From a virus: a DNA stretch of 64,000 bases. Location of the stretch: IMG/VR virus record IMGVR_UViG_3300010354_000001, positions 49,975 through 113,974 of that record. One strand, given 5' to 3'. Positions 6,911 through 38,711 of this stretch are shown piece after piece. A program made the position numbers and the translations under genes. Numbering within the stretch: position 1 is the stretch's first letter; every line of letters starts with the position of its first letter. The notes below the pieces were generated by a model, which was not told the origin of the DNA, made no database searches, and saw nothing but the letters and a program-made list of their open reading frames with translations.

Positions 6911-6970
6911 TAAGGCATAAAGAGATTAAGAGATAAATCTTCAATCTCTTAGTAAACTGAAAAAAAGAAT

Positions 6971-7080
6971 AGCCCCCAAGCCCAAGCCCCAAGCCCAAGC
7001 CCCAAGCCGAAGCCGAAGCCCAAGCCCCAAGCCGAAGCCGAAGCCCCAAGCCGAAGCCGAAGCCGAAGCCCTAAAAGCCG
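6971..7080. repeat. Tandem AAGCC(C/CC/G) 6-7 bp repeat array
   Basis: About 16 imperfect units AAGCCC/AAGCCCC/AAGCCG in an otherwise very AT-rich region. Confidence 0.9.
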
Positions 7081-10906: not shown

Positions 10907-10963
10907 AGCAGGCATCAACGTGTTAGATTAAAAGTCTAGTGTTGTTTTTGCTGTGAGCCTGCT
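10907..10963 (-). ncRNA. Y-like RNA 3 displaying a tRNA-Lys(UUU) anticodon stem-loop mimic
   Basis: AGCAGGC-TC-ACAGCA...AT-GCCTGCT closing stem; internal TAGA-CTTTTAA-TCTA hairpin. Confidence 0.7.
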
Positions 10964-10994
10964 TAGTTAATGACGTTAGCTAGACTAACAATAT

Positions 10995-11072
10995 AGCTAC
11001 TGGTAGGATTTGAACCTACGACCTCCTCGCCCATAAAATATGCAAGGTGCTCTACCTCTGAGCTACAGTAAC
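10995..11072 (-). tRNA. tRNA-like gene with aberrant 13-nt anticodon loop (isotype undetermined)
   Basis: GTTACTG/CAGTAGC acceptor, GCTC-AGAGGTA-GAGC D arm, GTAGG-TTCAAAT-CCTAC T arm; CCTTG-CATATTTTATGGG-CGAGG anticodon arm; no CCA. Confidence 0.75.
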
Positions 11073-11080
11073 GTGATTAC

Positions 11081-11198
11081 ACCAGTCATTTTGTCTACAG
11101 ACGCCTTACCTCTTGGCTACCCTTGTTTTACGAAGGAGTTGGATTTGAACCAACGATACTCTGTCCCTAATAGATGTTTTTTGTGCTGTTAGACTGGT
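11081..11198 (-). ncRNA. Y-like RNA 2 with circularly permuted tRNA module (YrlA-like topology)
   Basis: ACCAGTC-TA-ACAGCA...AT-GACTGGT stem; order T arm (GTTGG-TTCAAAT-CCAAC), closed acceptor hairpin, D arm (TA-GCC-AAGAGGTAA-GGC); ACAGA/TCTGT stem. Confidence 0.8.
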
Positions 11199-11208
11199 TG
11201 AGTGAGAC

Positions 11209-11336
11209 TGAAGACATTTTGTTGTTTTTTGATTTGCCTTACCGATCGGCCACCACTCCTTGCGGAATGGGTTGGATTTGAACCAACATACACATCTTGT
11301 TTTTGTTTTTGTTTGTTGTGTTGCTGTCTGTCTTCA
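11209..11336 (-). ncRNA. Y-like RNA 1 with circularly permuted tRNA module (YrlA-like topology)
   Basis: TGAAGAC-AG-ACAGCA...AT-GTCTTCA stem; T arm, CCATTCC-GCAA-GGAGTGG acceptor hairpin, D arm TG-GCC-GATCGGTAA-GGC. Confidence 0.8.
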
Positions 11337-11344
11337 AAGAGAAT

Positions 11345-11459
11345 CGGACTTGACTCTCAGCTTCGCTGAGGGAGATTATCGGCTTCACAGAGTCTGCTTT
11401 TACTCTCGTATGAGTAAGTAGTCTTATTAACTCTCCACCTACGCCCATCCTAGGCGTAT
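11345..11459 (-). ncRNA. Orphan TnpB omegaRNA scaffold, copy C
   Basis: Near-identical to 37429-37544 and homologous to the tnpB 3' end; terminal hairpin replaced by CTCAGC-GAA-GCTGAG but AAGTCCG end kept. Confidence 0.75.
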
Positions 11460-12910
11460 GTTTTAATTATAGCATACTTTTCATCATTTACTATATTTTC
11501 CACTAAAGATTCTGGATTTGCATCAGCTTCTAATACATATTTCATCACTGAAGGTGAGTACCCAGAAATTAACTGAACATTTTTATCTTTACTTAAAGCT
11601 GGCATGTTTCCTGTACGCCCACTGACGTTCCAAAATACTACTTTAGGCATAGCATAGCCTGAAGCTCTAAATAAATCTTGTATATGCTCAAAGTTGGTTT
11701 TGCTTTTATTGGCTACATCAAACTCCATATCAGAGATTATTAATATGCTTTTAGGCATTTCTGATTCTGGAGAATTATGCTGTTTAGCTCTTCCTAGTAA
11801 TAACTCAAATACTTTAGTTAAATCAGTGTTATAGCTCCAATTAGCCTTTCTTAAAGCATCTACTTTTTCAAGTAAAGTGCCTTCAGGAATAGTAAAGAAA
11901 GCTGGATTCTCACTGAAAGTGCAAACTAAGTTTTTAAAGTCTCCTACTAATCTTTCTGCTAAATAGATACCTAGTCCGACAGATACATCCATAGGTTCTC
12001 CTGCCATAGACCCAGATACATCACACACTACCAGAGTAGATGATGCTTTTCCTTGTAGATAGTCTGGTAAAGCTTTCCATTGGGCATCTGCGGTTGCAGG
12101 ATCTTTATCAGTAGCTTTGACTAGATCAGAAGGAAATAATACTGAGCTATTTATCTTCTTTTCTCCTTTAACTACTGCTTCTAAATACCCGTTAAACCTC
12201 TCCTCTGAGTGTTTTCTGAACGCTTTAGAGTAGTTGCTCATGGCCTTGGAAGGAACATGCTCGTATTTTATCTCATCCCACTTCTTAGCTGACATTTGAG
12301 TCTCTACTACTTTAGTATTAGCTGCTAGTTTCTGTCTGTAAGCTTTCGGCCCGCCTGCCTGCTCTGTTAGTTTCTTTCTTAGCTTAGGATATTTTTTAGA
12401 CTTCTCCCTAGGTAGCCACTTGAAAAGTAAACTGTCAGTTGCTTCGCCAAAAGCTTCTTGTATATGTTTAAGAACTACAAGCTTAGTAAAATAGTGAGTA
12501 GTATCGCTCTCGTAGAGATCGAATAGATAATCCCATCTTGTGAAAGAGACTATGTTGTCTACGTTATTGATAATCGCACTATCGCTGACTACTCTTACTA
12601 TATCCTCTGAGTTTATCTGGCATTGGGTAGTTTCGTGTAAAGTAGCTAAGTAGTTAAGGGCCAGTTTAAAAAATCTTCTCTCTCCTAGTCCTCCCCGAAT
12701 AGCTCCTGCCCAAAAAATTAACTTAATAGTCTTTTCTCTGTCGAATTTGTAAGCTTTATCTATTAATGCAGTTATATCTACATCGCTCATCTTCCTAGAG
12801 GCTCCTGCTAGGAACACAAAATCCACTAAGGGGTTGAAAGATGATTTATTTGTTACAGCACCATTGTCTGTGTGGCCTGTGTTAGTTAAATTTTTGATTA
12901 GATTATTCAT
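11450..12910 (-). CDS. Ro60/TROVE-like helical-repeat + vWA protein (DUF2828-type)
   Basis: TDNGA, IRGGLGERRFF, KWLPRE, VVETQMS..KW.EI.YEHVPSKAM; vWA MIDAS CDVSGSM, IISDMEFD, VVFWNV. Confidence 0.85.
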   Translation of the reverse strand: MNNLIKNLTNTGHTDNGAVTNKSSFNPLVDFVFLAGASRKMSDVDITALIDKAYKFDREKTIKLIFWAGAIRGGLGERRFFKLALNYLATLHETTQCQINSEDIVRVVSDSAIINNVDNIVSFTRWDYLFDLYESDTTHYFTKLVVLKHIQEAFGEATDSLLFKWLPREKSKKYPKLRKKLTEQAGGPKAYRQKLAANTKVVETQMSAKKWDEIKYEHVPSKAMSNYSKAFRKHSEERFNGYLEAVVKGEKKINSSVLFPSDLVKATDKDPATADAQWKALPDYLQGKASSTLVVCDVSGSMAGEPMDVSVGLGIYLAERLVGDFKNLVCTFSENPAFFTIPEGTLLEKVDALRKANWSYNTDLTKVFELLLGRAKQHNSPESEMPKSILIISDMEFDVANKSKTNFEHIQDLFRASGYAMPKVVFWNVSGRTGNMPALSKDKNVQLISGYSPSVMKYVLEADANPESLVENIVNDEKYAIIKTYA

Positions 12911-15865: not shown

Positions 15866-18034
15866 TTAAAATATTGATACCGATTGTAAAATTTGGCTCC
15901 AAACCTTCTCTACAAAATTACCTCCTTCTAAACCTTCAAACTGTTCTTGTGTGTAAGTCAGTAAGAAGCTTTTAGTTATTGGTAGATCGTTATACTTAGT
16001 TAATACTTCTTCTCTAGAAATCTTATCCCAGTTGCCTTTTTTATATATCTCTCTAAGCACTCTAATGTCTTTATAGATGGGAAGTTTAACTTTTAGAAAC
16101 TGACCTTCAGAATCTTCTAAGACGAAACCTTCGTCTAGCGAGTCTTTGGATCTCTCTATTAGCTTAGTCAATTCTGTAACAGTATTAGCTGTAAATACTT
16201 TAGTCTTAGGCTTAACTCCTATTGCTTTTGCTATAGATTTTACTTTCTCATAAGGCTCCCTGATAAACTCTAAGGTGTTATGCACTATATCCAGTAATAC
16301 TAGATGAGCTTTGTCGTACTTGACTATATGTGGATCTCGCACTGGGTCTATAACCTCAAACACAAAAGTAGTATTGGTGTCTTTAACATACTTAGTTAAG
16401 AACTCTACATCTAAGGTAGCGTGCAAAATGTCTTTTAAGTATTCTGAAAAATCAGAACTAGGGGAAGTTTTAGAAGTTATAAATAATTTATCTTTTTCAT
16501 GATCGTAACTAACTAAGCCTAAAAAACCATTCTCTTTAGTAAATACTTGTACTGGGTAAGTTAAGCTAGTTAGTTCTAATCCACGCTCTCCTAGATTAAA
16601 GAACTTCTCGTATCCTCTGGCTACTAATTTATTAGTTTTGTTGTTTATGAATAATCCTCTTGTTTTTATAGTTACTGAATCCCAAGATTTATCATAAAAG
16701 GCTTTTCTGGAAAAAGAATAAGAGTCTATATGATCGTATGTTTTCTTATTTATAAGTTTGCGATTTATATAGCTCTCTAAACTTTTTAGGAACTCTGGAA
16801 TATTCTCCTCTTTGCTCATAGGTGCTTTTGGGTTGTGGTATTTGATTATCTCTTGCCTATTTACATCATAAACTGAAAGATATCCTCCATGCTCTACAGA
16901 AGACTCTAAGCATACTGCACCATAATCAGTTATATAGCTATCATTACTCATGTTTCTGTGTCCGAATACTTGAGTAAAGCAAGTAAGTTCAGAACTGTGC
17001 CCATGGGGGTATAATTCCCTACCTAAACGCATATTTATACCTTTAGGGGTATAGTTATAGCCTTTTACCCCAGTCCACAAGTGTGCTGAAGGTTTTAATA
17101 CTATATCGTAGAAATTCTCTAGGTTCTGTTTCGTATCTACCCCAGCGTGAGTCACCAATATATTATTTCCCTCCTCTAACTGGACTACACAAGCATCGTA
17201 TAGTTTCTTTAGGAAATCTCTTATAGATTTTTTAGTTATCCCTGCTATTTTAGGTAGTGTTACGTTATTAAATGTACCTGATCTTGCTTTCTTGCCCATA
17301 CAGTAGTCTCTTAGATGTAGTTCGTGATTCCCCATTAATAGAGTTACGTTAGGCTTATCTGCTAATTCCATCATTCTGCGAAGCACGTAATTCTCATCAT
17401 CGCCACGATCTAAGTAGTCTCCTACAAAAACGTAATGAGTACTATCATCAAATTCACTTAAAAGTTTTTCTAGAGGTTTTCTACATCCCTGTATGTCGCC
17501 TACTATTAAAACCTTAATACTGTGCCTTTCGTACCTTATGCAAGGAATAAACCTGTTGGTCAAAAAATATGTATACAGAGTTTCTTTTAGAGTTTCCCCC
17601 TTAATGTGGTTATGATTATTTACAGCCTCATACCTTTCTTTCTGCCTATTTACCACTGATTCAGGAACGCTGTGTATTCCTCTAGTGGTATTATCTACCA
17701 GTGGAGTATTCCCAAAATCTAATACTAGAGTGTCATATAAATAGTTATCAGCTAATTCTTTAAACGGCTTCATGTCACTTTCTTTAGTGAATGTTGCATC
17801 TAATATAATTAGCTGCCCTTCATGCATTCTATATTCTACAGCTTCTTTAACTATAGCCCAGATAGATTTATCCATTCCCTGAGAGATAGTAGTTCTATCT
17901 AGTTCTACGTTATGTGTTACCCCTGCTACTGCATGTCTTATTTTATCAGGGCTTATTGTGTAGTCCTCATAGCCTTTAACGTAAGTGCTTTTACCTGTGC
18001 CTGAGACACCTCTTAAAAATATTAATAGTCTCAT
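15866..18034 (-). CDS. RNA end-healing/sealing fusion: polynucleotide kinase + metallophosphoesterase + Rnl1-type RNA ligase
   Basis: GVSGTGKST P-loop, LDATF; GDIQG/GDYLDRG/GNHE/THAG; RGLF, RGYEKFFN, KENG, FVFE, EGFVL, LKVK. Confidence 0.9.
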   Translation of the reverse strand: MRLLIFLRGVSGTGKSTYVKGYEDYTISPDKIRHAVAGVTHNVELDRTTISQGMDKSIWAIVKEAVEYRMHEGQLIILDATFTKESDMKPFKELADNYLYDTLVLDFGNTPLVDNTTRGIHSVPESVVNRQKERYEAVNNHNHIKGETLKETLYTYFLTNRFIPCIRYERHSIKVLIVGDIQGCRKPLEKLLSEFDDSTHYVFVGDYLDRGDDENYVLRRMMELADKPNVTLLMGNHELHLRDYCMGKKARSGTFNNVTLPKIAGITKKSIRDFLKKLYDACVVQLEEGNNILVTHAGVDTKQNLENFYDIVLKPSAHLWTGVKGYNYTPKGINMRLGRELYPHGHSSELTCFTQVFGHRNMSNDSYITDYGAVCLESSVEHGGYLSVYDVNRQEIIKYHNPKAPMSKEENIPEFLKSLESYINRKLINKKTYDHIDSYSFSRKAFYDKSWDSVTIKTRGLFINNKTNKLVARGYEKFFNLGERGLELTSLTYPVQVFTKENGFLGLVSYDHEKDKLFITSKTSPSSDFSEYLKDILHATLDVEFLTKYVKDTNTTFVFEVIDPVRDPHIVKYDKAHLVLLDIVHNTLEFIREPYEKVKSIAKAIGVKPKTKVFTANTVTELTKLIERSKDSLDEGFVLEDSEGQFLKVKLPIYKDIRVLREIYKKGNWDKISREEVLTKYNDLPITKSFLLTYTQEQFEGLEGGNFVEKVWSQILQSVSIF

Positions 18035-29561: not shown

Positions 29562-29572
29562 ACTAATTAGTC

Positions 29573-29691
29573 CGGACTTGTCCCATTAACATACGTTAAG
29601 GGAGATTATCGGCTTCACCGAGTCTGCTTTAATCACCTCGTATAGTGAGTCTAGTCTTACTAACTCTCCACCAGCGGCCATCCTAGCCGCT
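29573..29691 (-). ncRNA. Native TnpB omegaRNA scaffold, copy A (overlaps tnpB 3' end)
   Basis: Canonical position; conserved with covarying stems in copies B and C; putative guide GACTAATTAGTATGAGAG follows. Confidence 0.8.
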
Positions 29692-30761
29692 TCCTTTGCT
29701 ATATTGATAGAAGCGTTCCTGTCTCTGTGGTGCTTTGCACCACATTTACAAGTCCACTCCCTATCAGACAGTTGCAAACTATCATTTATTCTACCACACT
29801 CTGAACAAGTTTTACTAGAAGGAAAAAATCTATTTACCTCTATAACTTGTTTGCCAACAGAGTTGGCTTTATAATTTAAGTAGTTAAGGAATAATCCCCA
29901 ACCAGAGTCAGCTATTGACATAGCTAACTTATGGTTTTTAACTAAACCTTTAATATGTAAATCCTCTACAGCGAATGCTTGATTCTCGCATTCGCTTACT
30001 AGAGAATTAGAAACTTTATGAGAGAAATCTTTTCTCTTATTAGCTATTCTCTCGTGTAGCTTTGCTACACGGATTCTAGCTTGATTTCTCTTTTTAGAAC
30101 CTTTCTGCTTTCTGCAAAAATCTCTTTGAGATTTTTTTAGTTTACTTAAATTTTCTCTTAAAAACTTATTAGGTTTAACTCTAACTCCGTTAGAAGTAAT
30201 TAAAAAATCTTTTAGACCAAGGTCTAAACCTGTTATACCTTCTTTATGTTTAATATTAGATAAATCTAAATCTTCTACTTCAAATAAACAAACTGCATAG
30301 TAACTACCAGAAGCAGATTTTTTAACTGTTACTTTCTTTAACTTGCCTTCAGGCAAGTCACTTCCTCTAAACTTAACTAAGCCTAGCTTCGGTAGTTTTA
30401 TTTTATTACCAATTAAGGAAGTTCCTTGTATTATGGAGTAAGATTTTTTGCAATACTTGTTTTTAAATCTAGGAAATTTACCTACCCCTTTAAAAAATCT
30501 ATTATAAGCTTCTGCTAGATTACCGCAGGTAATCTGTAATTGTGCTGCTGAAGCAGCACTAAGCCATGTATATTGCTTTTTAAGTTTAGGTAAAAGGTTA
30601 TTCATATCATAATTAGATAAAGATTTACCTGTTCTTAAATATTTCTTTTTACAAATCTCTAACATTTTATTATAGATAAATCTAGAACAACCAAACTCAA
30701 TCTCAAGTTGTTTAACTTGTGATTGGTTTGGGTAAAGTTTAATTTCTCTTGATCTAAACAT
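29586..30761 (-). CDS. tnpB: RNA-guided endonuclease TnpB
   Basis: HTH_OrfB N-terminus, FPRFK, RuvC GLDLG / VEDL / DRNAS all intact, CSEC..C.C zinc finger. Confidence 0.95.
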   Translation of the reverse strand: MFRSREIKLYPNQSQVKQLEIEFGCSRFIYNKMLEICKKKYLRTGKSLSNYDMNNLLPKLKKQYTWLSAASAAQLQITCGNLAEAYNRFFKGVGKFPRFKNKYCKKSYSIIQGTSLIGNKIKLPKLGLVKFRGSDLPEGKLKKVTVKKSASGSYYAVCLFEVEDLDLSNIKHKEGITGLDLGLKDFLITSNGVRVKPNKFLRENLSKLKKSQRDFCRKQKGSKKRNQARIRVAKLHERIANKRKDFSHKVSNSLVSECENQAFAVEDLHIKGLVKNHKLAMSIADSGWGLFLNYLNYKANSVGKQVIEVNRFFPSSKTCSECGRINDSLQLSDREWTCKCGAKHHRDRNASINIAKEAARMAAGGELVRLDSLYEVIKADSVKPIISLNVC

Positions 30762-30801
30762 TATAATTGGAGGTGTCTCCTGATTATATTATACTACGTT
30801 C

Positions 30802-31245
30802 TTAACGTATGTTAATGGGATAAGTGTGGATTCTAATAAATCTATCCATGTGCCTAAAAGGAAATTTATTGGCTATATACATGGTTTCCTGCAGTTCTAC
30901 ATTATCTATATAGTAGTGGGGTTTCTCTGGATCAAACTTAATCAACCCTGACTTTATAAGTCCTGAGATTATTTTATCTAACTGTTTGTGTAGATCTGCG
31001 TGAATCTCCCTATCAAGTATTATTAAGTTTCCGTTAAACCCATTCTCTCGATCAAAGTCTATATGGTGTATATCAAATCTGTTGTCGGGGTAAAATCCGT
31101 GTTTAGCTTCAAATTCATCAGCTAAAGCATAGCGATCATCATAATTACGCTTCCTGCTTGCAGTCCATCTTTGGATGTATTTAGGATAAAAAAGTCTCTT
31201 CTTCTTTTTCAAGCGTACTTTAATTGTATCCTCAGAGGTCAGCAT
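30802..31245 (-). CDS. HNH endonuclease-like protein; C-terminus supplied by element end
   Basis: DIHHIDFDRENG...NLIIL...H..LH; ends TYPINIR inside the TIR. Confidence 0.75.
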   Translation of the reverse strand: MLTSEDTIKVRLKKKKRLFYPKYIQRWTASRKRNYDDRYALADEFEAKHGFYPDNRFDIHHIDFDRENGFNGNLIILDREIHADLHKQLDKIISGLIKSGLIKFDPEKPHYYIDNVELQETMYIANKFPFRHMDRFIRIHTYPINIR

Positions 31246-31346: not shown

Positions 31347-31529
31347 CTACTTCTTTGAAATTAAGGCTATAATTGCTGTAAGTGCCAGTAGCCCCATACC
31401 TACAGCATATGGAATCAGCACTCTATGGGAATAGTCGAAATCAGTACACAAATTTATCCACATGGATACCACTACAGTAAATAGCACTGATATTGCTATG
31501 CCTATCGAACTTACTGACACGCTACACAT
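31347..31529 (-). CDS. Small 2-TM membrane protein (start uncertain)
   Basis: Two hydrophobic helices. Confidence 0.5.
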   Translation of the reverse strand: MCSVSVSSIGIAISVLFTVVVSMWINLCTDFDYSHRVLIPYAVGMGLLALTAIIALISKK

Positions 31530-34423
31530 TCCTCGGTATTTATCTTAGCGGATAATACTGAATCAGATCTCAAGTAATACAAGGTCTTAACTCCAGTTTC
31601 CCAAGCTTGGTAGTGAACTTCGTGTAAGTATTTACCGTCTATGTCACCTTTTTCTGTTCTACCAAAGAATAAATTTAAAGACTGTGCCTGACATATATGT
31701 TTCTGTCTTGCTGCTGCCTGCTTAATTATAAATCTTTGATCTAACTCATAAGCTGTCTTGAATAGTTTCTTTTCTTCCTCTGTTAAAAAGTCTAACTGTT
31801 GAACACTGCCAGCATTTTTAATTATAGACTTCCATACTTTAGCAGTGTTTTGTCCTTTTTCTTTTAGTAGATTTTCTAGGTAAATATTTTTAACTAAGAA
31901 GCTTCCGCTTAAAGTTTTTTGTAAGTATGCGTTACCTGCTATAGGTTCTATGCAAGGAGTACAGTTACCTGCGATTATAGATATATTAGCAGTAGGAGCT
32001 ATAGCTGTTAAATAACTATTCCTGTTACCTGGATTATCCTCACACTCACCTTTAATCTTAGCAAGTTCTATAGATTTAGCTCTAGCTGCATTTTGAATCT
32101 TCTCAGAGATTATTTTAGCTAAGGCTACCGACTGAACTCCCTCAAAAGGAATCTTTTCTCGCATTAGGTATCCATGCCACCCCATCAGTCCTAAGCCTAT
32201 AGATCTTTCTTTAGAGGCTGAGTAAATAGCTCTTTTATAGTCTCTAGGATTTGCAGTTTTAAGGAATAGGGTGAGTACGTTATCTAATGCTTCTGTCGCT
32301 ATAGAGGATACATACTCTAATTGGTCTATTGGGCATTGTTCTAGGTTTATGCTGCCAAGTACGCATATGGCCGTTCTGTCTTTGCTTGTTGGCAAGACTA
32401 TCTCAGAGCAGTTGTGCACTAAAACTCCTGAGCAATTTAAGTATTTGTCATCTTGAGTGGAAGTTATTATGTAGAAATTGTGATTATCTTCTACAGTGAG
32501 ATCGTAAACTTCTTGCTCCTCATCAAGCTCTATAACACTTACTACTTTGTGATTACCTATCACTATGGATTTATAGTTACTCCAACTACCACCAAAACGC
32601 ATCTCGCTAAAAGTGTAAGGTATTTTGATTCCAGTCTCCTCCCTGTGTTTAGCTAACATACTTCGAGTTAAATCCCCATGTTTATTATATAATTTTTTGC
32701 CTATGGCAATTAATTCTTCGTTAGTTATACCGTTATAATTAGGGTTTAGCTCTCCTTTAGCCATCTTATTCTTACTACTTAACCACCTTTCCCTAGAAGA
32801 CTTATCCATGCGGTAAACCCAGTTGTTAGTGCCAGATATCTCACTGCTAGTCTTTTTTCTGTGTTCTTTGGCTGAGAGCATCTGTAAATTAGCTATGCCG
32901 TCATTTCTGATATCGTTATCTATGTGATCGATGTGATACCCTTTTGGAATATCCCCATTATAATAACTCCAGATCAGCCTGTGTTGTTTGGTATGCCCGT
33001 TACTAGATGACCCTATATGCCTGTAGGGTGTCTCTTTATGCAATCTAGTATACGTGTTGAAAGGCTGTAAAGAATCTCCATTCTTTAGGTTTCCTGCTTC
33101 TATATACTCGCCATTTTTTAGAGCTATTAAATGATCTTTAGTGCATTTGAATTGGCTATTATCATCCAATAACACTTGCACTAACTTCTTAACCCCAGTC
33201 TTAAACGCTACTGCTGCTTTGACTTCATTAGTCCAGAACGCCTCCTGCACCCCGCCCCCACGAACTCCCCTGCGTTTTATTTTAGCCTCTCTGGCACAAT
33301 ATACTGGGAATTTTTTTCTACCTTTAGACTCTTCCGCAAGCTGCTTTATAGTAACCCCGTTACGTCCGTCCGCTACAGCTACAACAGTATCCCCTGAAAA
33401 ACATAAATTACTTTGTTTTATCTCTAACCCTTTCTCTGAGTGGCTTTGCAGTATGTCTTTATTAGACGTGTCTATGTAGTGGATGTAAGGTTCTCCAGTT
33501 TCAATCCTACTCTTTAAAATCCCCTTCCATAAAGTTCTGGCATCTACAGTCTTAACTACCTCTTTTGTATGTGGGCATATTAAATTAAATGATTCTTTTT
33601 TATTTACCGCTTCCATAAAGTCATCAGTAATGTTTATCCCGTGATGAATATTTAAGCACTTTCTATTCTCATCCCCTCCAGTAGGTTTGCGAATGTTTAT
33701 ATATTCCTCGCAATCTGGATGACTAACATCTAGGTAGATAGCTGCCGAAGCTCTTCTGGTCGAGCCTTGGGATATGGCTAATGTATTAGAATCCAAGACT
33801 TTCATGAAGGGGATAGTACCTGAAGATTTTAAAGTCTTCCTAATAGGTGCTCCATGACCTCTTATGTCTCCCATAAAAACACCTAGCCCTCCTCCGCCTG
33901 CTCCTAAGTGGGCACACTCCTCTATAGTCTTATAGATGTCTGTGATAGAATCTCCCATGTAATTTAGAAAGCAGGAAACTAAATTTCCTTTGTTAGTGGC
34001 AGTGTTAGTTAAAACTGGAGTAGCTGGCATGAACCATAACTTAGATATAACTTCATAAAGCTCTGTGGCCTTAAGTATTAATCCTTCAGTTACTTCCACC
34101 TCATCTTTATCATACTGATCTGCTAAAGTAATACCTGCTGCTACTCTAGCAAAGAACTGCTGTGGCCCTTCTACTAGCTTTAGGTTATCTGACCTTAAGA
34201 AATATCTATCTCTTAAAGTCTCCAGCCCAAAATAAGTTAATAGCTTATTTCTGCTGTTATCTAACGGTATATGTTTTTGTAGAGTCTTTACTTTCTGTGT
34301 GTAATTAGGGCTGTCCCAAGAATTACTATCTCCTACCTCTTCTATGGTCTGTGCAAGTAATATGTCCCTAGCTCCTTCTATATCACCTTTATCTAAAGCT
34401 GCTAATATGTCTTTCTTCATCAC
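31511..34423 (-). CDS. nrdA: Class Ia ribonucleotide reductase alpha subunit with intein
   Basis: PATP, SCF, NL|C...N|CSEI, AIAPTA, TLYY, C-terminal CVAC. Confidence 0.95.
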   Translation of the reverse strand: MMKKDILAALDKGDIEGARDILLAQTIEEVGDSNSWDSPNYTQKVKTLQKHIPLDNSRNKLLTYFGLETLRDRYFLRSDNLKLVEGPQQFFARVAAGITLADQYDKDEVEVTEGLILKATELYEVISKLWFMPATPVLTNTATNKGNLVSCFLNYMGDSITDIYKTIEECAHLGAGGGGLGVFMGDIRGHGAPIRKTLKSSGTIPFMKVLDSNTLAISQGSTRRASAAIYLDVSHPDCEEYINIRKPTGGDENRKCLNIHHGINITDDFMEAVNKKESFNLICPHTKEVVKTVDARTLWKGILKSRIETGEPYIHYIDTSNKDILQSHSEKGLEIKQSNLCFSGDTVVAVADGRNGVTIKQLAEESKGRKKFPVYCAREAKIKRRGVRGGGVQEAFWTNEVKAAVAFKTGVKKLVQVLLDDNSQFKCTKDHLIALKNGEYIEAGNLKNGDSLQPFNTYTRLHKETPYRHIGSSSNGHTKQHRLIWSYYNGDIPKGYHIDHIDNDIRNDGIANLQMLSAKEHRKKTSSEISGTNNWVYRMDKSSRERWLSSKNKMAKGELNPNYNGITNEELIAIGKKLYNKHGDLTRSMLAKHREETGIKIPYTFSEMRFGGSWSNYKSIVIGNHKVVSVIELDEEQEVYDLTVEDNHNFYIITSTQDDKYLNCSGVLVHNCSEIVLPTSKDRTAICVLGSINLEQCPIDQLEYVSSIATEALDNVLTLFLKTANPRDYKRAIYSASKERSIGLGLMGWHGYLMREKIPFEGVQSVALAKIISEKIQNAARAKSIELAKIKGECEDNPGNRNSYLTAIAPTANISIIAGNCTPCIEPIAGNAYLQKTLSGSFLVKNIYLENLLKEKGQNTAKVWKSIIKNAGSVQQLDFLTEEEKKLFKTAYELDQRFIIKQAAARQKHICQAQSLNLFFGRTEKGDIDGKYLHEVHYQAWETGVKTLYYLRSDSVLSAKINTEECVACQ
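32411..33403 (-). mobile_element. Intein (331 aa) with HNH homing endonuclease in NrdA
   Basis: CFSGDT...VLVHN|C; TKDH block B; HRLIW...HIDHIDNDIRNDGIANL. Confidence 0.9.
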
Positions 34424-34825: not shown

Positions 34826-36796
34826 TTAGAAATCTCCCCAATCTGTGTCACCTTTACTGTATTCTGTTGCTCTCGCCTCGAAGAAGTTAGCATGTTCTTT
34901 GCCAGACATCATTAGATCCATCCAATCTAAAGGATTATCCTTAATGCCAAAAATAGCTTTTAATCCTAAGTTTTTAAGTCTGTAGTCTGCGATATATCTT
35001 ATGTAGTGCTTTAACTGTTCTGGGGTTAGCCCATCTACAGCCCCCATCTCGAAACAGGTGTCAATAAAATTATCTTCCAGTCTAACTATCTCTTCACAGG
35101 CATCATAAATTTCTTTTTTAAAGTCTGGATTTCTCAGTAGTTCATACTCTTTGACTAACTCTCTAAATAGGTACGAAACCCCATCAGAGTGGCAGTTCCC
35201 TACTATTGCGTGCTTAAGTCCTCTGCGTACAATTAAAGATCCTTCAGGCATAGTAAAACAGTACACTTTTCCTTTATAATGCTTTCTTTCTTGGTTTACA
35301 GCCTTCCACTTTCCTTCTTTAAGCTTTTTATTTATAGAGACTTTGTAGCTAGTATTGAATTTATCACTCCTATCGCCTGGACGTTCTTGCACAGTACACA
35401 AATACCCTGCTAATATAGCCACAGCTTGGACTTTGTCCCTAGATACTTCGCAAGTAGTTACATAATCTATGAATGAACCGTCCCCATACCTGTCATGCCC
35501 GTCCCAGTGCCCTATTTCTGATATTATGTCTTTGGCTTTTGCTGAACTTAGAGTTTCTAGGTTTATCCAAGATAAAGACTTATCCCTAAATATTATAGGA
35601 ATAATAAAGTGGTAGTTGGCGTACCCTTTCCTATCTAGACTAACTGTATATTTAATACCAGACTCAAGCAATAGCCTTTCTATCCTTTCTTTTTTGCGAT
35701 CTTTTTTTATGTTTAAATTAACACTAGTTCCGCCTGTCCTTTCCCCTAAATTTTTTGGACGTAAGTCCAATGACCCATATGCCTGAACTGCTATTCTTAG
35801 CCTCTCTAGAGGAGTTAACAGACCTTCCCCACCTACCCCACGCCCAGCTAATGGGTATGTGTATCTATTAGAACTTTTAATCTTTGCTAAATCTTTAGCT
35901 TTAATCTTTTGCAGGCTGCTAAATTTGTACCCATCCAGTGAGTCTGAAGGATTGTACTTATAGTTAAATAGTAAATCATGATCTTCGGTGCAGGCTATGT
36001 TTAGCCTAGCTTTACCATCCTTCATGTAAATCAGCTCACCATCAAAATCTTTTTCTATATAATTTATAGGAGTGTCAAACGATATCCCTCTAGTCGTTAA
36101 GTCCATCTGTGCTACTTTTTCCCCAAAAGCGACATCCCTAAATAACTTCCAGCCGTTCTCAGTTAATACCTCGGTTTTATCGTCAAAACAGTTCTCGTCT
36201 TTCACGCTCCAGGTTACTATCTGCCCAACTCCCTTCATTAAGCCCCTTCTAGGAAAGTTCATTAATACTGCGAAAGATGCGAATAAGCTTACCCCTTCTA
36301 TAAATCCGCCAAACACAGCTAAGTTTTTAGCTAGTTGCCTCGGAGTCGGTGCGATGTTAACTCTAGTACCGTCATCTAGAGAGTTTAGGTGCATCATATC
36401 AAATTTATCTCTCATAGCTGCGTAATCTTTAAAAGCCTCATACTCGGAGTCTGGTAAGCCTAAAGTATCATTTAGTTGGCTATATGCCCATGTATGTAAG
36501 ACTTCTGCGTTAGCAAAAGCTGTGAGCATCGCAGCTATTTCAGGCTTAGGAAAGTTCTTTATTAGAGAGGTATTGTAGTTATTCATTACCTCTTGATCTC
36601 CAATTGTAAAAAACCTAAGAATCTGAATTATTAAATTTTTTTCTGGCTCGGTTAACTTCTTATTAAAGTCGTAAATATCATCCGTCATCGGCACTTCAGT
36701 AGGAAGCCAGTGGGCCTTCTGCTGGTTAGTCATGTACTCAAAACAAATCGGATACTCTAAAGGTTTAGGAACCTCTCTCTTAGTTAAAATGCTCAT
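34826..36796 (-). CDS. nrdB: Class Ia ribonucleotide reductase beta subunit with intein
   Basis: WLPTEV, FFT.GD, E.LH..AY, EGVSLFASF, DEN|...|CH, NFFE. Confidence 0.95.
   Translation of the reverse strand: MSILTKREVPKPLEYPICFEYMTNQQKAHWLPTEVPMTDDIYDFNKKLTEPEKNLIIQILRFFTIGDQEVMNNYNTSLIKNFPKPEIAAMLTAFANAEVLHTWAYSQLNDTLGLPDSEYEAFKDYAAMRDKFDMMHLNSLDDGTRVNIAPTPRQLAKNLAVFGGFIEGVSLFASFAVLMNFPRRGLMKGVGQIVTWSVKDENCFDDKTEVLTENGWKLFRDVAFGEKVAQMDLTTRGISFDTPINYIEKDFDGELIYMKDGKARLNIACTEDHDLLFNYKYNPSDSLDGYKFSSLQKIKAKDLAKIKSSNRYTYPLAGRGVGGEGLLTPLERLRIAVQAYGSLDLRPKNLGERTGGTSVNLNIKKDRKKERIERLLLESGIKYTVSLDRKGYANYHFIIPIIFRDKSLSWINLETLSSAKAKDIISEIGHWDGHDRYGDGSFIDYVTTCEVSRDKVQAVAILAGYLCTVQERPGDRSDKFNTSYKVSINKKLKEGKWKAVNQERKHYKGKVYCFTMPEGSLIVRRGLKHAIVGNCHSDGVSYLFRELVKEYELLRNPDFKKEIYDACEEIVRLEDNFIDTCFEMGAVDGLTPEQLKHYIRYIADYRLKNLGLKAIFGIKDNPLDWMDLMMSGKEHANFFEARATEYSKGDTDWGDF
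35195..36190 (-). mobile_element. Intein (332 aa) with degenerate LAGLIDADG-type domain in NrdB
   Basis: CFDDKTEVLT...AIVGN|C; TEDH; IGHWDG. Confidence 0.85.
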
Positions 36797-36799
36797 AAA

Positions 36800-37216
36800 T
36801 TATATCTTTTCCCTTTCTGTTTCAAGTATAGCACCTGCCTTGGCTATATTTCTTGGATATTCTCTACCTCGCATAAAAAATTTACTATCTGTTTTAGTAG
36901 GCTTGTAGTATTTCTCTATAGTAGCTGTTGCAAGCTCTATATCAAAATCTTTGCAGCTAAAAATATCTACTGTTATAAATCCATTTTGGTCTGGAAAAGT
37001 GTGTACTGCTATGTGACTTTCTGCGATTAGCACTACTCCACTAACGCCCCACTCTTCTTCTACTTTGCCTTTATACTTAAAAACATAAGGAGGCATTATC
37101 TTTGTCATCCCTATCTCATCAGGCAACTTATCCAGTATATCTGCGGTTATCTCTACTGATCTTGTAGCTTGCTCATCGCAGCCGTAGAGTTCTAATACTA
37201 AGTGTGGTCCAAACAT
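36800..37216 (-). CDS. speD: S-adenosylmethionine decarboxylase proenzyme (pyruvoyl-dependent)
   Basis: GPHL...LYGC, GVSGVVLIAE|SHIAVHTFP, DIFSC. Confidence 0.9.
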   Translation of the reverse strand: MFGPHLVLELYGCDEQATRSVEITADILDKLPDEIGMTKIMPPYVFKYKGKVEEEWGVSGVVLIAESHIAVHTFPDQNGFITVDIFSCKDFDIELATATIEKYYKPTKTDSKFFMRGREYPRNIAKAGAILETEREKI

Positions 37217-37349
37217 TTGTATAAATATTGTTACTTAACTTTTGTGTTTTAAATATTAAGATTTTTGGTAAAATTTTAAGGCACGGACATAAAAGGAATA
37301 AATGGAAAACAATGAAAACTGCCGTGCCTATACTCCTATTATAGCATAC

Positions 37350-37544
37350 CAAACTTATCCCATTAACATACGTTAAGAATGTAGTATAATATAACTAGGC
37401 ATGATAACCAAGTGTCTATTACGAAAAATACGCCCAGGATGGGCGTAGGTGGAGAGTTAATAAGACTACTTACTCATACGAGAGCAAAAGCAGACTCTGT
37501 GAAGCCGATAATCTCCCTTAACGTATGTTAATGGGATAAGTCCG
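37350..37544 (+). mobile_element. 195-bp non-autonomous mini-element: TIR + promoter + omegaRNA + TIR
   Basis: 28-bp TIRs (26/28), TAGCATAC duplicated at 37342-37349 and 37545-37552, TATAAT at 37385-37390. Confidence 0.85.
37429..37544 (+). ncRNA. TnpB omegaRNA scaffold, copy B
   Basis: Homologous to copies A and C; putative guide TAGCATACTACCGAAAG follows. Confidence 0.75.
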
Positions 37545-37850
37545 TAGCATACTACCGAAAGATCTACTACCATAATAAAAAGGTGAATAATGAACTTGAT
37601 AATCTGTCTTTGGGTCTTGCATTAACTCCACATGACATAAAGAACCAAGACAGGGATAATAATCTCGTGGAAAATACGTTATTATGTTATTTTCTAGATC
37701 CTCTCTATCTAAGATAAACCATTGCACTTCACATTTGTCATCATAATTATAGTAAACCGCATAGTCAGTAGTCTCTACGGACTTACATGATGCATAACCT
37801 AACTCTTCCAATACACTCTTACAATGCTCGAACTTATCTATTGGATTCAT
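37518..37850 (-). CDS. Hypothetical protein; C-terminus extended by mini-element
   Basis: Ends RTYPINIR in the TIR; reconstructed empty site gives ...GSML-stop. Confidence 0.7.
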   Translation of the reverse strand: MNPIDKFEHCKSVLEELGYASCKSVETTDYAVYYNYDDKCEVQWFILDREDLENNIITYFPRDYYPCLGSLCHVELMQDPKTDYQVHYSPFYYGSRSFGSMLRTYPINIR

Positions 37851-38364
37851 TGATTAACTGCTCATGTATTGGCTTTGAGAAGTCTAATTTCTTAGTCTTC
37901 CCTTTCTTGTATTCAGAGATTCCCCTTTCTATAACAGACTCTAAGTCATCCCCAAATAATATCTCTGCTATCTTTGGTTTAAAGTAATCTTTACCTTTAC
38001 CGACTTTCCCATCTTCCCTAAACACAGGTTTACCGTCTTCTAGCTTAGATAGATTAGAGTCTTTAACTTCCTCGAAACATCTTTCTAGTATCTCTACAGC
38101 TTTATCTCCATAGCCAGCATCTTCTAATACTTGCAGACCTATATTAAAAGCTACAAAGGCTACATCACATACACCATCTATGGTCTCTACTAAACATTCT
38201 TTGTTGTAGGCAGTGTCTACCACAGACCAAAGATAAGAATTAAGCCCTTGGCTCAGTTCTCCTACTTCCTCATCTAAATACCTTAGATGATCTTGTGCTG
38301 ATTTTAAAGGATCTGGATTACCTACTCTTACTATCTTATCTATAAACTGTTTAATTTTTTTCAT
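37834..38364 (-). CDS. MazG-like NTP pyrophosphohydrolase (PRA-PH/dUTPase-like)
   Basis: EEVGE, DGVCD, EV.DSNLSK..DGKP.FREDGKV.KG..YF.P. Confidence 0.85.
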   Translation of the reverse strand: MKKIKQFIDKIVRVGNPDPLKSAQDHLRYLDEEVGELSQGLNSYLWSVVDTAYNKECLVETIDGVCDVAFVAFNIGLQVLEDAGYGDKAVEILERCFEEVKDSNLSKLEDGKPVFREDGKVGKGKDYFKPKIAEILFGDDLESVIERGISEYKKGKTKKLDFSKPIHEQLINESNR

Positions 38365-38372
38365 GTAATCGC

Positions 38373-38711
38373 CTATCCTCTCATGTCTTTAATCTCATAA
38401 TCCTTAGAGTTCCAACCACGCTCTCTTTGTCGGTTAGCATAATCGTGAAGATAATCATAAATATATATGTCTTCTGTAATGTCTCCTGTTGTTACATCTA
38501 TAACTAGACACCCTGCGTACACATCTGATATAACAAAGCAGTTATCTCTTCTATGTACGAACTGGCACAAATGATTCTTTAGGTAATTTAAACCGCCCCA
38601 AATCTTAGGTCTTTTACCCCAGCTAAAATTGCTACCAGTTCTACCTCTAGAGAATAGTCCAGTCTTTGGATTGAGTATTGCGTAGCCTTTTAGTGTTATT
38701 GGAAATTGCAT
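38373..38711 (-). CDS. Hypothetical protein
   Basis: 112-aa ORF. Confidence 0.7.
   Translation of the reverse strand: MQFPITLKGYAILNPKTGLFSRGRTGSNFSWGKRPKIWGGLNYLKNHLCQFVHRRDNCFVISDVYAGCLVIDVTTGDITEDIYIYDYLHDYANRQRERGWNSKDYEIKDMRG

Follow-up and report, generated by a model that had tools for sequence, protein, structure and literature searches.

What does a 195-bp insertion with inverted ends and no gene of its own do in a phage genome that also encodes the RNA-guided nuclease TnpB? The insertion, here called the mini-element, lies at 37350–37544 of the window, by which we mean the whole stretch of DNA analysed. It makes up the right-hand 64 kb of a virus record that is complete at 113,974 bp and has direct terminal repeats. 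The sequencing runs containing this phage are freshwater and lake metagenomes. The neighbouring genes, on the − strand, include those for an AdoMet decarboxylase, a MazG-like pyrophosphatase and a ribonucleotide reductase with inteins. In the last of these, intein/Hint modules split the genes of both subunits (31511–34423 and 34826–36796), the module in the large subunit carrying an HNH domain, and this part of the genome is densely populated by selfish inserts. Elsewhere in the window (6962–7075) there is a short tandem array of C-rich 12–13-nt units resembling CCCAAGCC. Positions are those of the window unless they are marked as genome or contig positions.

Anatomy of the mini-element and its empty alleles

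The mini-element is flanked on both sides by the 8-mer TAGCATAC (Table 1). Its ends form a perfect 25-nt inverted repeat (37353–37377 and 37517–37541), which extends imperfectly to 37350 and 37544 and so measures 25–28 nt overall. Four copies of the 24-nt end motif are present in the window, where 100 shuffles gave an expectation of 0; two belong to the mini-element and two surround the 1.26-kb TnpB1 element at 29572–30831. Alignment of the two elements gives 92% identity over the left 51 nt and 97% over the right 58 nt. The first-pass annotation had already described a left end shared with the tnpB element; the sharing stands, with a measured length of 51 nt rather than the ~42 bp given there. 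The other parts that it listed, namely the 8-bp repeats, both inverted repeats, TATAAT, spacer and scaffold, are all present. The promoter site consists of TATAAT at 37385–37390 with TTAACA 16 nt upstream, within the inverted repeat, and an identical site is found upstream of tnpB in the full TnpB1 element. In IMG/VR, neither the inverted repeat nor the reconstructed empty site gave a match when used as an exact pattern.

On the opposite strand the right inverted repeat is read as protein. The product of the ORF at 37518–37850 ends in GSML followed by RTYPINIR-stop, and that of the HNH ORF at 30802–31245 (−) ends in TYPINIR-stop, again encoded by an inverted repeat. Both translations therefore bear out the earlier statement that the two ORFs terminate in the same repeat-encoded peptide; likewise, when 203 bp are deleted in silico, GSML is followed directly by TAA, as had been proposed.

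Table 1 Features of the mini-element and related insertions (window positions unless marked)
Feature	Position	Strand	Remarks	Empty allele and flanking repeat
Candidate TAM, TATTA	37337–37341	+	Directly 5′ of the guide match in the empty allele	
8-bp direct repeat (target duplication), left copy	37342–37349	.		Present once in empty alleles
Left inverted repeat (left end)	37350–37377	+	From end-motif count and element alignments	
Sigma-70-like promoter	37363–37390	+	−35 within inverted repeat, 16-nt spacer, consensus −10; 11 of 12 consensus positions	
5′ hairpin	37397–37417	+	Common to gene-less copy at genome 12697–12895; loop conserved, stem covaries	
omegaRNA scaffold	37424–37544	+	Ends TCCG; terminal hairpin formed by its final 28 nt, which are the right inverted repeat	
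Terminator-like hairpin and T-run	37429–37447	−	Scaffold hairpin 1 read backwards; downstream of the extended ORF	
8-bp direct repeat, right copy	37545–37552		Same 8-mer; first 8 nt of the predicted guide	
Predicted guide, about 16–20 nt	37545–37564	+	Right flank; copies diverge after TCCG	
110-aa ORF	37518–37850	−	Last 8 codons and stop from right inverted repeat; no family match in Pfam or PHROGs	
Solo gene-less scaffold	11345–11463	−	Lacks a left end; own promoter-like motif; core 97% like the mini-element	
Full TnpB1 element	29572–30831	−	Inverted ends, same promoter, tnpB 29586–30761, scaffold 29573–29693	L102, L103 (10 nt in place); repeat at most 2 bp (0–2 bp)
Gene-less copy	genome 12697–12895			Four related phages, precise absence; 0-bp repeat
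TnpB2 element	genome 7422–8677 (L010:585–1840)			Related record G008; 0-bp repeat
L012 element	L012:2945–4208			This genome, 21846–21868; 6-bp repeat and 15 extra bases after the scaffold

Among contigs of four sequencing runs aligned to 36800–38400 there are two empty alleles. A contig of run X5 joins 37341 to 37545 and so skips exactly 203 bases, that is, 195 + 8. One from run X3 continues through 37349, with a single copy of the 8-mer, enters a diverged flank and rejoins at 37571; this flank, though diverged, agrees with the predicted guide over the guide's first 15 bases. The two alleles come from different studies and independent lake metagenomes, neither of which is that of the probable source sample. 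A test set in advance, that empty alleles should carry the 8-mer once, was thus passed in both runs, and a related viral contig (L030, with an AdoMet decarboxylase 95% identical) also lacks the insert, a promoter-like motif running uninterrupted through the site. On the − strand the insertion point falls within an extended −10 motif, a kind of motif that the genome contains repeatedly, and the 8-bp duplication restores the −10 box of the downstream promoter.

Since empty alleles with a single 8-mer are found in two studies, the mini-element is a real, discrete and mobile insertion, and its movement is recent. As in homing elements, it is present or absent at one and the same site among related genomes.

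The guide-RNA scaffold and its relatives

The scaffold aligns with the RNA overlapping the 3′ end of tnpB in this phage, in contig L012 and in the second tnpB gene of the genome (genome 7483–8655). Its assignment as an omegaRNA is supported by this homology, which extends to both sequence and structure, by its stopping at the right end of the element, where a copy-specific flank (the guide) takes over, and by the presence in the same genome of an intact TnpB in which the catalytic residues are kept. RNAalifold predicts 20 pairs in the aligned scaffolds, 8 of them with compensatory changes, and the terminal hairpin is built from three unrelated sequences with the pairing kept in each. A covariance model run over the whole genome finds exactly five copies with scores of 110–138 bits, the mini-element (136 bits) scoring close to TnpB1's own scaffold (138 bits). 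Two of the five are linked to tnpB genes and three are gene-less: the mini-element, the solo copy at 11345–11463 and the copy at genome 12697–12895. All five end in TCCG, beyond which the flank is specific to each copy, and the predicted guides have no second near-match anywhere in the phage genome. The predicted transcript of the mini-element folds with z = −2.4 relative to shuffled sequences.

No Rfam family matches the scaffold at its gathering score; a match to RAGATH-18 fell below threshold (19 bits, cut-off 45) and was not used. A conserved 18-base pattern from the scaffold matched one related contig among viral contigs and gave 16 matches in metagenomes, one of them real (L071, the same phage as L012) and the remainder due to chance. 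Four related fragments (G006–G009) contain no scaffold within the pieces available. A metatranscriptome library contains one 151-nt contig that spans 37422–37572 with zero mismatches and is specific to the filled allele, in a run that covers few parts of the stretch; this is a weak hint of expression, possibly DNA carry-over.

The solo copy is also found in runs X2, X3 and X5, at loose contig ends. It begins at the stop codon of a gene for a DUF2828/Ro60-like RNA-binding protein (11450–12910), and its guide leads into a row of tRNA-like structured RNAs in which tRNA-Ile at 10995–11072 is the sole call by ARAGORN and Rfam; scaffold and row together lie within 10907–11463.

The nuclease that could use these RNAs is encoded 6.5 kb from the mini-element, and there are two intact tnpB genes in the 114-kb phage. 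TnpB1 has 391 residues with HTH, OrfB and zinc-ribbon domains (Pfam), and its RuvC residues D180, E266 and D347 and the zinc-finger cysteines are invariant. TnpB2, encoded outside the window, is 58% identical to it, and the TnpB2 element has perfect 23-nt inverted ends of a different sequence, likewise beginning CGGA. Genes for TnpB are frequent in phages, 610 of ~50,700 records giving a match, with 42.5% identity for the best isolate; a distant DNA search of isolated phages returned short tnpB fragments and nothing more.

Comparison of the scaffold cores bears on the ancestry of the mini-element. The gene-less cores are 91–97% identical to one another, 73–75% identical to TnpB1's own scaffold and about 55% identical to that of TnpB2; the core of the mini-element by itself gives about 73–79% and about 57%. 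The first-pass annotation had taken the mini-element for a tnpB element reduced to its RNA-making parts; as a plain reduction of the resident element this is not upheld, since the core resembles the other gene-less copies at 91–97% and TnpB1 at about 73%, and the ends alone match. The mini-element and the copy at genome 12697–12895 have the same layout of left end, promoter, 5′ hairpin (loop conserved, stem covarying) and scaffold, from which it follows that a gene-less ancestor predated both and moved at least once. By its alignments the mini-element is a chimera, with ends like those of the TnpB1 element and a core like those of the other gene-less copies, the ends having later been brought into line with those of the TnpB1 element or swapped for them.

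Sister insertions and the 8-bp duplication

Empty alleles are documented for all four of the elements here that bear a left end (the mini-element, TnpB1, genome 12697–12895 and TnpB2). In the four phages that are empty at genome 12697–12895, 19 of 21 positions immediately beyond the insertion point agree with the guide of the gene-less copy. This copy (199 bp, L002, outside the window; empty in L119–L122) has a left end, a promoter and a scaffold and lacks the right inverted repeat. The empty alleles of the TnpB1 element diverge from its guide after 7 nt; therefore not every empty allele is a target. The element in contig L012 is of the TnpB1 type, and the 15 extra bases after its scaffold resemble half of the phage promoter motif, as though the element had brought along part of a former flank (the old guide). 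Because of this filler the sequence following the scaffold does not match the element's own empty allele.

The 8-bp duplication is thus real yet unique to the mini-element among the insertions that were compared with their empty alleles. It had been proposed that each new insertion creates a new guide starting with the duplicated 8 bp. The first half of this agrees with our results, the predicted guide being in each case the element's own right flank; the second does not extend to the four sister insertions, where the 8-bp duplication is absent (0–2, 0, 0 and 6 bp plus a 15-nt filler). A staggered cut of the kind made by TnpB was considered as a source of the 8 bp; no TAM-like motif was found 13–16 nt from the repeat on either strand.

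In runs X3 and X5 a left-end and a right-end junction of the same family lie ~930 bp apart (15979–16940, −), inside the ORF at 15866–18034 that encodes a kinase–phosphatase–RNA ligase and beside two similar 9–10-nt sites; either the ligase domain has been replaced or there were two separate insertions. Record G004, from a phage more distantly related, has one isolated copy of the inverted repeat (L105:1501–1527), which is placed like a −35 region before a small gene and may be a fossil left end. The inverted-repeat motif is not a recurrent promoter in the present genome, and the L105 copy looks like a gene promoter.

As to the enzyme that moves these elements, a Y1 TnpA (PF01797) was not matched in the complete phage genome in a search whose positive controls worked, and a host copy is possible; nor were a serine recombinase or an IS1595-type DDE domain (PF12762) found in the phage. 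The TnpB relatives at greater distance, from viral and bacterial contigs, lack inverted ends and are therefore of no help on the mechanism of mobility.

A proposed homing cassette and its place among known systems

The mini-element is a protein-less, non-autonomous relative of TnpB transposons that carries just the parts needed to make a guide RNA. We consider it probable that this RNA programmes the phage TnpB in trans to cut the empty alleles of co-infecting relatives, into which the insert is then copied; the limits of transcription, the loading in trans, the identity of the TAM, the cleavage and the homing itself are what we infer from the arrangement described above. The left-end promoter would drive an RNA made up of the 5′ hairpin and the omegaRNA scaffold and reading into the right flank, of which about 16–20 nt would become the guide. 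TnpB from the full element 6.5 kb away would bind this RNA. On co-infection with a relative lacking the insert, the complex would cut the empty site, where TATTA stands immediately before the guide match, and recombination with the filled genome would copy the cassette in, with possible exclusion of the rival allele. The filled site would be spared: the guide match there adjoins the end of the scaffold and not a TAM-like motif, and the left copy of the repeat would offer 8 matching bases only.

TATTA abuts the guide match in the empty site of the mini-element and in the reconstructed empty site of TnpB1, the other two sites having AGATA and AAGTA; at the site of the mini-element it is also the reverse complement of a −10 box. 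From these four sites a TAM ending in TA is a reasonable guess. Because the core has diverged from the scaffolds of TnpB1 and TnpB2, compatibility in trans is assumed from the conserved positions and the compensatory changes.

Three other accounts of the locus have to be weighed against homing. The inverted ends of 25–28 nt and the exact 8-bp duplication would suit a MITE derived from a cut-and-paste DDE transposon and mobilised by a transposase of the host, the guide RNA being a passenger; the 8-bp size fits the IS1595 family (IS1595/Merlin-like), in which duplications of this length are typical (PMC8101967), and the perfect 23-nt inverted ends of the second TnpB element (58% identical) point the same way. 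Such a transposon would be expected to leave a duplication of constant length, and here the values are 8 bp against 0–2, 0, 0 and 6 bp plus filler; the copy at genome 12697–12895 moreover lacks the right inverted repeat, the more distant TnpB relatives lack inverted ends altogether and no cognate DDE transposase (PF12762) of the IS1595 type is encoded in the phage. Since the sister junctions are without the 8-bp duplication, a DDE-type (IS1595-like) origin is not supported, and we regard it as very unlikely. A different idea takes in all of these elements. They would form a class with co-evolving inverted repeats (two repeat sequences for two TnpBs) and no Y1 or serine TnpA, spread by another route on which an 8-bp duplication is left behind at some insertions and ~15 nt of the old guide come along at others; this might correspond, in phages, to the capture of Fanzor by cut-and-paste transposons, or else be a move assisted by the nuclease, with the gene-less cassettes multiplying as a lineage of their own. 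We offer it as a speculation with rather little chance of being right in full.

The mini-element might also be an inert relic: a piece of transposon without a gene that underwent a single move and has since been neutral, with an RNA that either is not produced or does not serve TnpB. The core scaffold does differ by ~25% from that of TnpB1, none of the three transposase families tested is present in the phage, and the insert is harmless where it sits, adding 8 codons and a stop to one ORF while its duplication restores the downstream −10 box. A neutral fragment is hard to reconcile with three gene-less cores that remain 91–97% alike with paired positions kept, with a near-consensus promoter and a 5′ hairpin that covaries between two loci, or with the retention of the solo copy in at least three other metagenome strains, and we think this explanation unlikely. 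If, on the other hand, the cassettes are active, their cutting could serve mainly as a weapon against competing phages, by exclusion of alleles or genomes, with the gene-less guides as a dispersed set that benefits the phage. Five guides for two nucleases in one lytic-type genome would fit this, as would a solo copy that, despite the loss of its left end, possesses a promoter of its own and is kept in several strains, and there is a precedent in the free-standing homing nucleases of phages, which kill rivals when conversion fails (review PMC13565253). Against it, no guide matches any other place in the phage genome, and each guide reads its own flank, so that its natural target is the allele without the insert, which is the geometry of homing; that defence is the main role seems to us highly doubtful.

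The homing reading agrees with what has been described elsewhere. According to PMC10691335, citing Altae-Tran et al. 2021, standalone omegaRNAs are mobilised without an effector or a transposase and act in trans. The mini-element resembles these parts of OMEGA systems, as presented there, in having a scaffold without nuclease or transposase, a compatible TnpB in the same genome and its own flank as guide, and in the trans action proposed; unlike them, it is phage-borne and has a near-consensus promoter in the left end, inverted ends, an 8-bp duplication and documented natural empty alleles.

PATEs also encode omegaRNAs, and TnpB promotes homing at empty sites (Meers et al., 10.1101/2023.03.14.532601). 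As in the published homing model, the guide is the right flank, the empty allele joins it to the left flank and the filled allele is protected; like the PATEs of the IS200/IS605 elements, the mini-element is protein-less and keeps both transposon ends and the guide RNA, with the same logic of homing at empty sites. It is nevertheless not one of them. IS200/IS605 elements have no inverted ends, make no duplication and are moved by a Y1 TnpA, which this phage does not encode (no cognate PF01797 match in its genome), whereas the mini-element has a 25–28-nt inverted repeat and an 8-bp duplication, although its sister copies do insert without one; in place of a fixed 4–5-nt motif, the 5′ neighbours are TATTA, TATTA, AGATA and AAGTA.

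Inverted ends have been reported around TnpB linked to IS630 (PMC10691335) and in Fanzor elements with TIRs and TSDs (PMC10711439, PMC3627910). There too, including in the eukaryotic transposons, symmetrical ends bound an RNA-guided nuclease element and the inverted repeat contributes to the guide-RNA scaffold, of which it makes up the 3′ part in the mini-element. The differences are that no DDE transposase is linked here, that sister copies are without the duplication, and that in Fanzor elements a short constant duplication joins the scaffold, whereas in the mini-element a variable 8-mer would start the guide. A further parallel is with the free-standing homing endonuclease genes of T-even phages, known for intronless homing and marker exclusion (PMC13565253). 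Like these, the mini-element is a selfish insert between conserved phage genes, present or absent among relatives, and would be expected to spread in co-infection by cutting of the insert-less allele. Unlike these, it would recognise its target by RNA, and its nuclease is encoded elsewhere; with RNA targeting and a separately encoded nuclease, one enzyme can serve several dispersed inserts.

The guide-only kind of element has thus been described before, as standalone omegaRNAs and PATE-like elements. What is particular to this phage is the combination of inverted ends without a linked transposase, a single 8-bp duplication, a self-contained promoter, a lineage of gene-less cassettes and the empty alleles. 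The inverted ends and the single duplication do not fit textbook IS200/IS605 or IS607 ends and raise the question of their mode of movement in phages. As a guide-only OMEGA element the locus is a clean case from nature: wild populations contain both filled and empty alleles, the small phage genome also encodes an intact nuclease, and RNA-guided homing between phages becomes directly testable there. One phage can scatter several guides for one or two nucleases, which is a step toward guide arrays.
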